From contig CAVVXN010000005.1 in assembly GCA_963752285.1 (NCBI GenBank), positions 800,001 through 864,000 on the forward strand: a stretch of 64,000 nucleotides of DNA. The letters are read 5' to 3'. The stretch comes from an uncultured Planctomycetota bacterium. Its GTDB lineage: Bacteria; Planctomycetota; PLA2; JAEUHO01. Shown one piece after another: positions 46,709-52,330 of the stretch (the stretch's first letter is position 1; each line of letters opens with the position of its first letter). A model generated the notes under the pieces. The model was given only the letters and a program-made list of their open reading frames with translations. It was not told the origin of the DNA and searched no databases. A program made the translations under genes and the position numbers.

Positions 46709-47034
46709 CCCGCCGCAAAGATCGAGGACTGCTGCGGGCGGGTCCGCGACACGGCGAGCGCCGAGCCGCCGCGCGCGTGGACGGGCGTTCGTTCCCGCTG
46801 GACCCGATCCCCTGGGAGCCACCGGCGCGATTCCTCCGGGATCCCGACGTCGAGATCCTCGAGGAAGACCGCCCGCCGAGCGCGGAGTGACCCGCCGCTC
46901 GTGCGATCTCGTTCGTGCGGCGCTGGCGGACGGCTACTCCCAGGGACCGTACCGGAACGGTCGGTGCCACGCACGCCGCCGCGCCAAGCGCCTCGACAGG
47001 CCGGATTCGTGCGGCCTGAACGTGGATCAGAAAC

Positions 47035-47051
47035 AGCCCGTCACGCGGGCT
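47035..47051 (-). promoter_or_regulatory. Hairpin downstream of the in-frame UGA: candidate SECIS and/or intrinsic terminator
   Basis: Minus strand AGCCCG-CGTGA-CGGGCT starting 13 nt after the UGA, followed by GTTTCT. Confidence 0.5.
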
Positions 47052-47913
47052 TGCGCTTGACGCGTCACCCCACCGGCTTCGTGTCGTTCGCGTTCGTCGG
47101 GAGGTTCTTCCCGGACCGCACGGCCTGGATCGCGTCGCGCAGGTAGTCCTTGCGCTCCGCGCCCTTGAGCTCGTCCTGCGGGTCGTTGTCCACGGCGCCG
47201 CGGTAGCGGAGGTGGTGGTCGGCGTCCAGGAGGAAGAGGTGCGGCGTGTTCGTGGCGCCGAAGAGATCGGAGACCTTCTGGTCGGGGTCCATCACGACCT
47301 TCCAGCGGTAGCCCGTGAGGTCCTCGTAGTCCGTGACGTGTCCGGGCTTGTCCGGGTAGTCGCCGGCCACGGCGAGCAGGCGCACGCCGGTGTCGCCGAG
47401 GATCGACTGGACGCGCTCGTCGTACACGCCCTTGCACATCGGGCAGCGGGGCGACCAGACCATCACGAGGATCGGCGCCTTCGCCGCGCCTTCGATCCAC
47501 GTGGCGAGGTCGCGGAGCGTCTTCGCCCCGTCGCGTGTCTCGTCACCGGGCACCAGACCGAAGCCCTGGCCGACGCGGGCGACGAAGTCGGCTCGGAGGT
47601 CCGAATCGAGCTCCCCGTCCGACTGCAGGCCCGGGAGGGCGTCGATCGCGGTGTCGAGCGTCACCGGCTTCCCGTCCGCCTTCGCGCGGGCCGCCTCGAG
47701 CACCCAGGACTCGGCCTTCGGAGCGGTGATCTCGAGGTCGGAGAGCGAGACGTTCCTCCCGTCCACGCCAGGACCCGAGAAGCCCTGGACCAGGTCCCCG
47801 ATCGCGTAGGGCCCACTCGCCTCGGCGGCGCCGCCGGATCGGGCGGCGAGGGCCAGGGCGAACGCGGCGGCGGGCACCAGGAGCCAGGCGAGACGGAGCG
47901 GGGCAGCGCGCAT
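47041..47913 (-). CDS. Exported redoxin/thioredoxin-family (Prx-like) protein; probable selenoprotein (TGA at 47067-47065) with an ACP-like insertion
   Basis: Signal peptide, WSPRCPMC, FGATNTPHLFLLD, LRYRGAVD, TKPVG-TGA-RVKRKPA-TGA; ends at 47065 if the first TGA is a stop. Confidence 0.85.
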
Positions 47914-48014
47914 ACGGGTCCTCCTCAGGCGACGACCCCCGATGGTACGGGCCGCGGAGAGGGGCTCACTTCGAAGTCCAAAGCCCCGTGTTCATACCGC
48001 CGGAGCGACCCGGG

Positions 48015-49255: not shown

Positions 49256-49732
49256 TCAGCGCATCGCGTCGCGCATGCGGCGCCGGTCGTCCTTCTCGCG
49301 CTCGCGCGCCCGGTGGTCGGCTTTGCGGCGGCCCTGGGCGAGCGCGAGCTCCACCTTCACCCGGACGCCCTTGAAGTAGAGCGACAGCGGGATCATCGTC
49401 GTGCCTGCCGCCTCGAGGCCCTCCTCGATCGTCCTCAGCTCGCGGCGGTGGACCAGGCACTTGCGGGGGCGGTCGGGCTCGTGGCCGAAGCTCGCGGCCT
49501 GCGAGAGCGGAGGGATGTGCACCCCGTGGAGCCAGAGCTCGTCGTCGCGCAGGCGCGCATAGCCCTCGCGGATCGTGGCCCCGTTCTGTCGGAGCGAGCG
49601 CACCTCGCTGCCCTGGAGCACGAGGCCGGCCTCGACCTTGCCGAGCAGCAGGTAGTCGTGCCGCGCCCGGCGGTTCGTCGCCAGGACGCGACGACCGCCC
49701 TTCTCGTCGGACGCGGGGCTCGACTTCGTCAT
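49256..49732 (-). CDS. smpB: SsrA-binding protein
   Basis: NRRARHDY, EAGLVLQGSEVRSLR, HEPDRPRK, KVELALAQGRRKADHR. Confidence 0.96.
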   Translation of the reverse strand: MTKSSPASDEKGGRRVLATNRRARHDYLLLGKVEAGLVLQGSEVRSLRQNGATIREGYARLRDDELWLHGVHIPPLSQAASFGHEPDRPRKCLVHRRELRTIEEGLEAAGTTMIPLSLYFKGVRVKVELALAQGRRKADHRAREREKDDRRRMRDAMR

Positions 49733-51187: not shown

Positions 51188-51985
51188 TGGAGGCGGGGGA
51201 GGCTCCCCCGCGGGGTGGGGCGCGCGGGCGAATGGGGCGACGGCGTACGGAGGCGGGGGGTGGGCGTTTGGCCCTTGGGCGCGGGGGAGCATTACTTCTC
51301 TCCCCCCGCCTCCTGGATCGGGGCTCGCGGTCGAGCGGGGCTTGGCGTACGTCCGGACCTTGTGATCGACGGTGGGTGGTGGGGATGGAGGCGGGGGAGG
51401 CTCCCCCGCGGGGTGGGGCGCGCGGGCGAATGGGGCGACGGCGTACGGAGGCGGGGCGTGGGCGTTTGGCCCTTGGGCGCGGGGGAGCATTACTTCTCTC
51501 CCCCCGCCTCTTGCATCGGGGCTCGCGGCCGAGCGGGGCTTGGCGTACGTCCGGACCTTGTGATCGACGGTGGGTGGTGGAGATGGAGGCGGGGGAGGCT
51601 CCCCCGCGGGGTGGGGCGCGCGGGCGAATGGGGCGACGGCGTACGGAGGCGGGGCGTGGGCGTTTGGCCCTTGGGCGCGGGGGAGCATTACTTCTCTCCC
51701 CCCGCCTCTTGCATCGGGGCTCGCGGTCGAGCGGGGCTTGGCGTACGGACGGGCCTTGTGATCGACGGTGGGTGGTGGAGATGGAGGCGGGGGAGGCTCC
51801 CCCGCGGGGTGGGGCGCGCGGGCGAATGGGGCGACGGCGTACGGAGGCGGGGGGTGGGCGTTTGGCCCTTGGGCGCGGGGGAGCATTACTTCTCTCCCCC
51901 CGCCTCCTGGATCGGGGCTCGCGGTCGAGCGGGGCTTGGCGTACGGACGGGCCTTGAGATCGACGGTGGGTGGTGGAGGCGGGGG
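51188..51985. repeat. Four 198-bp tandem repeats abutting and overlapping the tmRNA 3' end
   Basis: TGGAGGCGGGGG recurs at 51188, 51386, 51584, 51782 (period 198) and at 51974 (inside ssrA); copies nearly identical. Confidence 0.95.
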
Positions 51986-52330
51986 GAATTGCACCCCCGT
52001 CCCGAGATGGGTGAGCGGGCGTCACTACGCGCGTAGTCCGAGGTTTGAGGTCTCGCTCTCGGGGACGCCCTCGGACGGGCTTCCCTTCGGGCCAGCGGGT
52101 GAAGTCTCGCTGCCCCTTCGACCCGCGGCGAAGGGGCGGCCAGCCTGCGTTATGGCGGCCGTACGTCCCCCGCAGACAGAGGGACGGGGCCGCGCCACCT
52201 GACTAGGCGGCGAGAGCGTAGTTGCTGTTGGCAACTGAGGTTCCAGGGGAGGTTGTTGACGAGGTCCGACCCTGGGTACCCCGGCGCGCGACGCAAACCC
52301 ACCGACATCCGGTCGATTCTGTTCGCCCCC
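51971..52330 (-). ncRNA. ssrA: tmRNA (transfer-messenger RNA), tag peptide (A)ANSNYALAA*
   Basis: 5' GGGGGCGAACAGAATCGAC; 3' GACGGGGGTGCAATTCCCCCCGCCTCCACCA with G3-U acceptor pair; tag frame 52232-52203 GCC AAC AGC AAC TAC GCT CTC GCC GCC TAG; 360 nt; smpB nearby. Confidence 0.95.

Follow-up and report, generated by a model that had tools for sequence, protein, structure and literature searches.

The window analysed here, a 64,000-nucleotide stretch of a contig from an uncultured Planctomycetota bacterium, carries on its minus strand a redoxin gene with a probable export signal. The reading frame starts with the ATG at 47913 and runs to ...NDTKPVG, where it meets an in-frame TGA at 47067-47065; the codons for RVKRKPA separate this triplet from a second TGA at 47043-47041, and a hairpin with a GU-containing loop (47051-47035) starts 13 nt after the first TGA (Table 1). 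An earlier sequence-only reading of the window had described this arrangement in just these terms, together with a CPMC motif, which falls at residues 157-160, and had proposed a probable selenoprotein that standard annotation would cut short. The sequence is indeed as described, the public protein sets do end the product at 282 residues (P0003), and the selenium machinery, the orthologues and the comparison of hairpins all support the proposal: this near-terminal TGA almost certainly encodes selenocysteine.

Table 1. Features of the redoxin gene and its surroundings (positions in the window).
Feature	Coordinates	Strand	Remarks and basis
Predicted selenoprotein gene	47041..47913	-	Complete, 290 aa with Sec283; translation, Pfam, AlphaFold2
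Shine-Dalgarno-like AGGAGG	47920..47925	-	6 nt 5' of the ATG; sequence
Probable signal peptide, residues 1 to about 30	47824..47913	-	Basic start, hydrophobic core, small-residue end
Predicted ACP-fold four-helix insert, residues ~60-143	47485..47736	-	Profile, model, structural match
Ser104, aligned with the ACP phosphopantetheine serine	47602..47604	-	HMMER alignment
Conserved Cys157 of the active site, first position of the CxxC	47443..47445	-	Family alignment
Cys160, second Cys of CPMC, unconserved	47434..47436	-	Family alignment
T-P-H motif, residues 223-225	47239..47247	-	Thr in 56/56, Pro in 53/56
In-frame TGA, predicted selenocysteine 283	47065..47067	-	Orthologue comparison
Read-through tail RVKRKPA	47044..47064	-	x-[VI]-K-R in 19/19 TGA orthologues
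SECIS-type hairpin, 6-bp stem, loop C-G-U-G-A	47035..47051	-	Fits published consensus
Predicted true stop codon TGA	47041..47043	-	Orthologue stop comparison
Further element	46997..47018	-	Fold and sequence; judged by eye

The surroundings of the gene were compared across the window and 16 of the 21 orthologue loci (n=17). Recurrent neighbours are an RlmI-like methyltransferase (13/17), smpB (11/17), DUF3299 genes (13/17) and an ABC transporter (10/17); the last two are convergent and absent from the window, and three loci have a different context. This conservation was considered as a functional clue and set aside, being taken as synteny, not function. At many of the orthologue loci (L042-L051, L055) the downstream, convergent block consists of two DUF3299 genes, a MacB/FtsX-type ABC permease with its ATPase, sfsA and a HAAS-domain gene, and it is this DUF3299/ABC block that is missing at the corresponding place in the window. 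The window has smpB at 49256-49732 (-) and a tmRNA call at 51971-52170 (-), some 2 kb apart and 2-5 kb upstream of the selenoprotein gene. The tmRNA that ARAGORN calls is just 200 nt long and its tag peptide seems atypical; the gene could be partial or permuted. In the interval between it and the upstream ORF (~51190-51960) a ~120-bp unit recurs several times in tandem, which shows as repeated peptides in overlapping ORFs.

The predicted protein consists of a signal peptide, a split PrxL / AhpC-TSA / Redoxin thioredoxin-like domain, an acyl carrier protein (ACP)-like insert and the end G-U-R-V-K-R-K-P-A. A hydrophobic N-terminal stretch, as judged from hydrophobicity and inspection, is present in 24 of 25 sequences of the alignment (the remaining one is a fragment), and export of the redoxin is predicted. 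Two Pfam models score above their cut-offs, PF00578 with E 3.5e-7 and PF08534 with E 6.6e-7, and residues 144-252 are AhpC-TSA/Redoxin; no NCBIfam model reaches its cut-off with the window protein, and there is no PrxL-like selenoprotein model among the matches of the family members. AlphaFold2, run with Cys replacing Sec, gave a model with a mean pLDDT of 90.4 (91 across residues 281-290). Its best fold matches are 2cvb, 2ywo, 3u5r and 2ywi (Foldseek E 2e-10 to 4e-9), which we take to belong to cd02969; superposition on 3u5r (VIA Z 21.5, rmsd 2.7, 170 aligned) includes the tail, to residue 290. The T-P-H motif presumably corresponds to the cis-Pro loop of thioredoxin-fold proteins.

The insert, which the sequence-only reading had missed, follows the first beta-hairpin of the thioredoxin fold and precedes its first core strand; it is absent from the 2cvb, 2ywo, 3u5r and 2ywi structures. 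Searched as a profile against the PDB, its ten matches out of ten are acyl carrier proteins (E 0.0015-0.0099); an NCBIfam ACP model matches 4 of 25 members (best E 1.2e-4), and the Pfam PP-binding model (PF00550) matches 1 of 25, weakly (E 0.047). Modelled alone (pLDDT 90.7), the insert has 3ce7 as its best structural match (Z 11.5, rmsd 2.2, 85 aligned), a Z value within the range that helical bundles reach by chance; the sequence-profile matches, however, agree with it independently. The 50 structural matches listed are all either carrier-protein entries or complexes of which a carrier protein is a known component. Foldseek found no match to the insert alone at E <= 0.001, the rows that it listed being nevertheless ACPs. 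From these profile and model comparisons we predict that the insert adopts the four-helix ACP fold. A functional ACP was rejected, since the position of the phosphopantetheine serine is unconserved: it is Ser in 1 of 56 sequences, that of the window itself, and otherwise Pro, Ala, Asp, Glu or Thr. Ser104 of the window protein is accordingly taken as a coincidence. Among the literature matches listed (12 of 51) there is no description of an ACP-like domain within a thioredoxin fold.

The equipment for reading UGA as selenocysteine is present in the host genome (4.64 Mb, 89% complete, 73% GC), where selA (E 3.9e-152), selB (E 1.4e-94), selD and a tRNA-Sec with anticodon TCA were all found above curated cut-offs. 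selA is followed directly by selD (G000:C1:734626-736999; L001, L004), and SelD has an in-frame TGA of its own at the catalytic position (C1:736103).

Comparison with relatives is the more telling evidence. A search of 61 related genomes returned 22 full-length matches, the window included and all of them in the window's family, with 30-51% identity to the window protein. At the site in question the codon is TGA in 19, TGC in two and cut by a contig end in one; not one of the 21 readable orthologues has TAA or TAG. An additional contig-end fragment (L076) has TGA and the same hairpin at the site. Cysteine therefore does align with the TGA, as the sequence-only reading had supposed, both in the two TGC orthologues and in PDB 2cvb, 2ywi and 3u5r, which have G-C-x-I-K at this position. 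That reading had also likened G-U-R-V-K to the typical end of such proteins: all 19 TGA orthologues do continue x-[VI]-K-R past the site, while the remaining residues of the seven-residue tail are not conserved. The next stop lies 4-24 codons beyond the Sec codon and is TAG in 13, TGA in five and TAA in one; in all five cases of TGA it falls within the hairpin loop. Judged by the in-frame-TGA criteria for selenoproteins that we took from the accessible part of 10.1101/2022.07.06.499078 (in-frame TGA against Cys, stops that are TGA only, homology beyond the stop), the window gene reads as a selenoprotein gene, with 19 TGA and two TGC orthologues, none with TAA or TAG, and a tail that is kept. 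At the protein level, 41 insert-bearing representatives drawn from a search of 1.84 billion proteins end in 25 cases at a Gly on or beside the site and in seven go on with G-C, with one G-T and eight fragments. Both Cys (TGC) orthologues belong to genomes carrying selA and selB, so selenocysteine would seem to be dispensable. Sequencing error at the TGA is excluded because the orthologues share it. A contig from a soil run, which may be the source sample, is identical to 47006-47437, and a contig of a second study differs over 47000-47192 by nine letters, six of which are listed, none in the TGA; there is no RNA data set among the sequencing runs listed for the locus.

The hairpin (arms AGCCCG and CGGGCT around the loop CGTGA) has its stem 13 nt and its loop 19 nt after the UGA; the predicted true stop codon falls inside the loop, which places the 3' arm in the 3' UTR. 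The bacterial SECIS model, in the accessible part of PMC13188914, specifies loop size, stem, a G in the first two loop positions and a loop 16-37 nt after the UGA, and the window hairpin agrees with this consensus in each of the four respects. Nevertheless, its folding energy alone is insignificant (z -0.3 to -1.6 against shuffles). We scored loci by a rule derived from the published model, narrowed to GU loops after the orthologues had been viewed and applied with our own script, not bSECISearch: a stem of >=4 pairs and a GU-containing loop of 3-7 nt, 16-37 nt from the UGA. The window hairpin passes, but so do 133 of the 943 ordinary TGA gene ends of the same genome (14%) and 657 of 5000 random TGA triplets (13%). 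Hairpin and TGA by themselves are thus no better than chance, and the case rests on comparison with relatives.

That comparison gives a clear contrast: the rule is satisfied at 19 of 21 TGA loci against none of eight TGC loci, and the two TGA loci that fail have hairpins at 39 and 43 nt. Since the rule had been shaped on this first set, it was applied unchanged to the insert-less homologues, where it holds for 37 of 42 TGA rows and one of 30 Cys rows; dropping three duplicate TGA rows, and the two TGA and two Cys rows already used, leaves 32 of 37 against one of 28 for new loci only. Fisher p-values for comparisons across the relatives (2e-5 and 4e-12) overstate the case because relatives are not independent. 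The SECIS-like element of the sequence-only reading is upheld by this enrichment across the family. A further sample of eight G-TGA loci contained two without the hairpin, and the SelD TGA of the window genome itself fails the GU-loop rule; with 2/21 and 5/37 TGA loci and SelD missing it, the rule is neither necessary nor complete.

Three other arguments about the hairpin were rejected. Covariation in the hairpin alignment (84% paired, 6/6 pairs doubly changed) is no proof, the rows having been picked as hairpins. The motif CCGCGTGACGG is not a genome-wide SECIS signature: it has 29 genomic copies, and on inspection the other 28 are not recognisably placed after an in-frame Sec codon. Nor does the second TGA appear to be a second Sec codon, the hairpin downstream of it having no loop G and 14 of the 19 orthologues stopping with TAG or TAA.

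Six orthologues have their SECIS-type hairpin unusually far from the UGA (31-43 nt), and all six have an extra hairpin in between, whose subtraction leaves 19-21 nt in five of them. Each of these six spacer hairpins is equalled by 6-16 of 500 shuffles of the spacer, and three of the six come from one genus. Among five independent far cases four have a spacer hairpin, and the shuffles equal it in 9, 31, 39, 98 and 500 of 500, so that only one is clearly beyond chance. A spacer hairpin that restores the SECIS distance is a lead and no more. Such hairpins were seen in L012, L013, L015, L022, L023 and L024, and also in L078, L079, L134 and L140; they start 10-14 nt after the Sec codon (21 in L013) and shorten the distance to ~19-23 nt (30 in L013).

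In a survey of 401 Planctomycetota genomes the insert-bearing form came up in 14, every one a member of the window's family (five weaker matches covered the thioredoxin part only). A profile of the insert-less form, in contrast, found 138 matches in 113 of 301 genomes, 47 of them with an internal TGA; 41 of these are G-TGA at the Sec site (40 genomes, 14 families) and the other six ordinary stops. Among Planctomycetota genomes with selA, 39 of 86 have the G-TGA form, against one of 27 among those where selA is missing, a contrast whose statistics are inflated by kinship; the one selA-negative genome that has the form is 84% complete and has selB, with no tRNA-Sec match. To place the two forms we made a quick unrooted tree of the thioredoxin part (120 rows once three spurious ones were dropped, with 22 database rows labelled Sec only by their terminal Gly). 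A branch with SH-aLRT 98 separates the insert-bearing proteins from the rest, and the tree requires 20 changes between Sec and Cys at the site, with at least eight changes forced by well-supported branches. As to the range beyond Planctomycetota, the best 120 of 2964 database matches all have G-C because truncated forms score lower, and the genome scan gave one locus.

Several individual loci deserve mention. In each of the tandem paralogue pairs at L090, L100 and L101 (G132, G283, G244), one copy is G-C and its neighbour G-TGA with the hairpin, and L145 (G016) has two adjoining G-TGA copies. The window genome has a distant paralogue (L009 / L084, G000:C5:491820-492179) with C-P-C and a C-terminal G-C (TGC). 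In P0029, L071, L074, L102, L141 and L147 the C-terminal Cys is replaced (G-T, G-R, G-F); P0029 also has no Cys157, which suggests that there are redox-inactive members. Two long proteins carry the insert-bearing redoxin domain as their last domain, ending in Gly: P0045 (1001 aa) has a Ser/Thr kinase and a hydrophobic segment, P0052 (992 aa) TIR, zinc-ribbon and PASTA parts. In both, the terminal Gly possibly stands before a Sec codon.

With respect to the redox centre, the motif at the active site is W-S-P-x-C-P-x-[SCV], and the peroxiredoxin motif PxxxTxxC is absent in the aligned family. Cys157 is found in 55 of 56 family sequences, is Cys and never TGA in the 21 aligned orthologues, and aligns with the C-P cysteine of 2cvb, 2ywi and 3u5r. 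Position 160, on the other hand, is Ser in 21 of the 56 sequences, Cys in 20, Val in ten, Ile in three and Thr in two. The CxxC was rejected as the catalytic pair of the family for this reason, and the redox pair is, with good probability, Cys157 and Sec283. The sequence-only reading had pictured a CxxC combined with a C-terminal Sec; the Sec with the first cysteine stands, the CxxC itself does not hold for the family.

Our overall explanation, which we consider probable, though with slightly less assurance than the pair itself, is an exported 290-residue PrxL-type thioredoxin-fold selenoprotein working as a reductant or relay. SelB bound to the GU-loop hairpin would bring Sec-tRNA to the UGA, a step strongly supported by the comparisons, and translation would then end seven codons on, at the UGA within the hairpin loop. 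The signal peptide would direct the protein to the periplasm. There the C-terminal tail would fold back so that Sec283 and Cys157 could form a reversible selenenyl-sulfide, a selenium version of the long-range disulfide of Caulobacter PrxL, with Cys160 optional; this step is suggested by the co-conservation of the two residues as well as by PrxL. By analogy, the protein might reduce envelope proteins, or act as a redox relay for them, and be recharged by the DsbD/ScsB-type membrane protein of the genome; for DsbD-type recharging the chances seem to us evenly balanced. The genome has one DsbD-type protein (L157:886-3111 (-), 741 aa) with DsbD_TM and a thioredoxin domain, and PF11412 (DsbD_N) is unmatched both in it and in the 89% complete genome. 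This protein has a divergent N-terminal domain with C-x-x-x-C, and it adjoins a second ORF with a similar motif. The selenoprotein gene is not beside dsbD/scsB, unlike many prxL genes. In the least certain step, the insert would carry no phosphopantetheine and be a docking surface that chooses the partner or substrate; that it is such a non-covalent docking module could be true or false with equal probability.

An unlikely alternative function is that of a periplasmic peroxidase, in which the inserted Sec283 attacks peroxide, Cys157 resolves, and the insert holds an acyl chain that favours lipid or acylated substrates. Selenocysteine generally stands in for the most reactive residue in a redox pair; the insert retains the ACP helix arrangement and hydrophobic pattern, and the repeated Sec/Cys exchange at the site (20 changes, at least eight forced) would also suit a peroxidase. 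Yet the PxxxTxxC motif is absent, and the Sec form is common in insert-less homologues (41 loci), which argues that Sec and insert are not coupled. Moreover, the Cys-type Caulobacter PrxL is, in the accessible part of PMC3322552, without thiol-dependent peroxidase activity. Less probable still is a redox or soft-metal sensor, in which an inserted Sec283 and Cys157 signal via partners bound to the insert. The insert-bearing domain does end two signalling-type proteins, P0045 and P0052, both Gly-terminal, but these fusions are just two of 41 insert-bearing representatives, known from protein sequence alone. Furthermore, a search for longer forms, in itself a weak test, returned one protein with Redoxin/AhpC-TSA matches only, and no conserved sensor or metal-resistance gene adjoins the locus.

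It is very improbable that the TGA is a real stop and the protein a one-Cys or CxxC redoxin that has lost its C-terminal cysteine, what lies downstream being a conserved leftover. TGA is, it is true, the commonest stop in the genome (943 of 1295 likely gene ends, 73%), 14% of such ends have a hairpin of this kind, and the public annotation ends there. But all 19 stop-containing orthologues, at 30-51% identity, have TGA and retain an in-frame x-[VI]-K-R; in addition, the hairpin goes with TGA and is absent with Cys, and the TGA form tracks selA/selB. Finally, a UGA read as Cys or Trp through a reassigned code or a suppressor tRNA is hardly credible: the homologous residue is indeed Cys, but in the 63 tRNA calls of ARAGORN the sole TCA anticodon is that of tRNA-Sec and tRNA-Trp has CCA, which argues that UGA is not reassigned, and besides TGA is the main stop codon and the TGA site depends on the SECIS-type hairpin and selA.

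Several of these ideas can be joined in one reading. In it, the ACP fold, free of its prosthetic arm, would present acyl chains or acylated envelope proteins to Cys157/Sec283, making the protein a lipid-directed peroxidase or repair reductase; the module would be reused as an extracytoplasmic sensor on kinase and TIR proteins; and the spacer hairpin would restore 19-21 nt for a SECIS 31-43 nt away. Taken as a whole, this combination is rather unlikely to be correct.

Returning to the exported PrxL-type selenoprotein, the closest characterised protein that we found is Caulobacter crescentus PrxL (CC0220; cd02969 PRX_like1; Cho et al. 2012). According to the accessible part of PMC3322552, PrxL is exported, its two distant cysteines form a disulfide that ScsB keeps reduced, it has no detectable peroxidase activity, and its function is undefined. 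Our comparison is with this published description, not with the CC0220 sequence. The likeness consists in an exported thioredoxin fold, two distant redox residues, no peroxiredoxin motif and a plausible DsbD/ScsB client; the window protein has the thioredoxin fold, the conserved first Cys of the CxxC position and the distant C-terminal G-U/C283 of the PrxL type. It differs from PrxL in having Sec as the second residue, an ACP-fold insert of ~85 residues, and a gene away from scsB/dsbD. The best matches in both sequence and fold are the structural-genomics PDB entries 2cvb/2ywo (Thermus), 2ywi (Geobacillus) and 3u5r (Sinorhizobium). The C-P cysteine, the T-P-x loop, Y-x-G-x-x-D and the C-terminal G-C-x-I-K all align in 2cvb, 2ywi and 3u5r, whereas the four structures have a G-C end, about 190-220 aa and no insert.

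Among catalogued selenoproteins, Table 1 of PMC13188914, which includes the families of Haft and Tolstoy 2025, has several redoxins: Prx (TxxU), Prx-like thiol:disulfide oxidoreductase (UxxC/UxxU, PF00578), Redoxin (UxxC, PF08534) and UGC-TlpA, besides cd02970 (UxxS). The first four share with the window protein the Pfam families, the UGA/SECIS recoding and the Sec-for-Cys exchange. However, the catalogued Prx, Prx-like, Redoxin and UGC-TlpA families have Sec within the CxxC-type motif, whereas in the window protein that motif keeps its Cys and Sec comes 126 residues later, seven residues from the C-terminus, with a SECIS partly in the 3' UTR. Among the 119 prokaryotic selenoprotein families of this 2026 catalogue there is no cd02969 entry and no C-terminal G-U redoxin. 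A C-terminal G-U PrxL subfamily is likewise not described in the accessible parts of the mostly open-access literature searched (including PMC3091736, PMC3514251, PMC9312934, PMC1914089, PMC13326102 and PMC12013277). S9 Table of PMC4807772 names selenoprotein candidates from planctomycetes, called 'peroxiredoxin' and 'AhpC/TSA', for which it gives no sequences; each is annotated as two genes. A two-gene annotation is a misfit with a seven-residue tail, and these candidates could be the same site inside a longer fusion.

With acyl carrier proteins (PF00550; PDB 3ce7, 2n50, 6lvt) the likeness is a four-helix fold with remote sequence similarity across the insert; in contrast to them, the insert is embedded in an exported oxidoreductase and its phosphopantetheine serine is unconserved (1/56). 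An ACP fold inserted in an exported thioredoxin is an architecture that we did not find in the literature searched. In view of these comparisons, the gene appears to be a real selenoprotein gene that is mis-annotated, whose Sec position is missing from the catalogue and whose ACP-fold insert is out of the ordinary. It would add a widespread and systematically truncated subfamily to the selenoproteins, made up of 41 insert-less loci that were verified, from 14 Planctomycetota families, and of the insert clade in addition. Most of the SECIS is downstream of the stop codon, where no coding constraint acts on it, so that the subfamily is also well suited as a natural data set for the geometry of bacterial SECIS elements, the apparent spacer hairpins included. 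Sec would mark the C-terminal residue of PrxL as a catalytic partner, and so offer a direct way into a family that has lacked a defined function since 2012.
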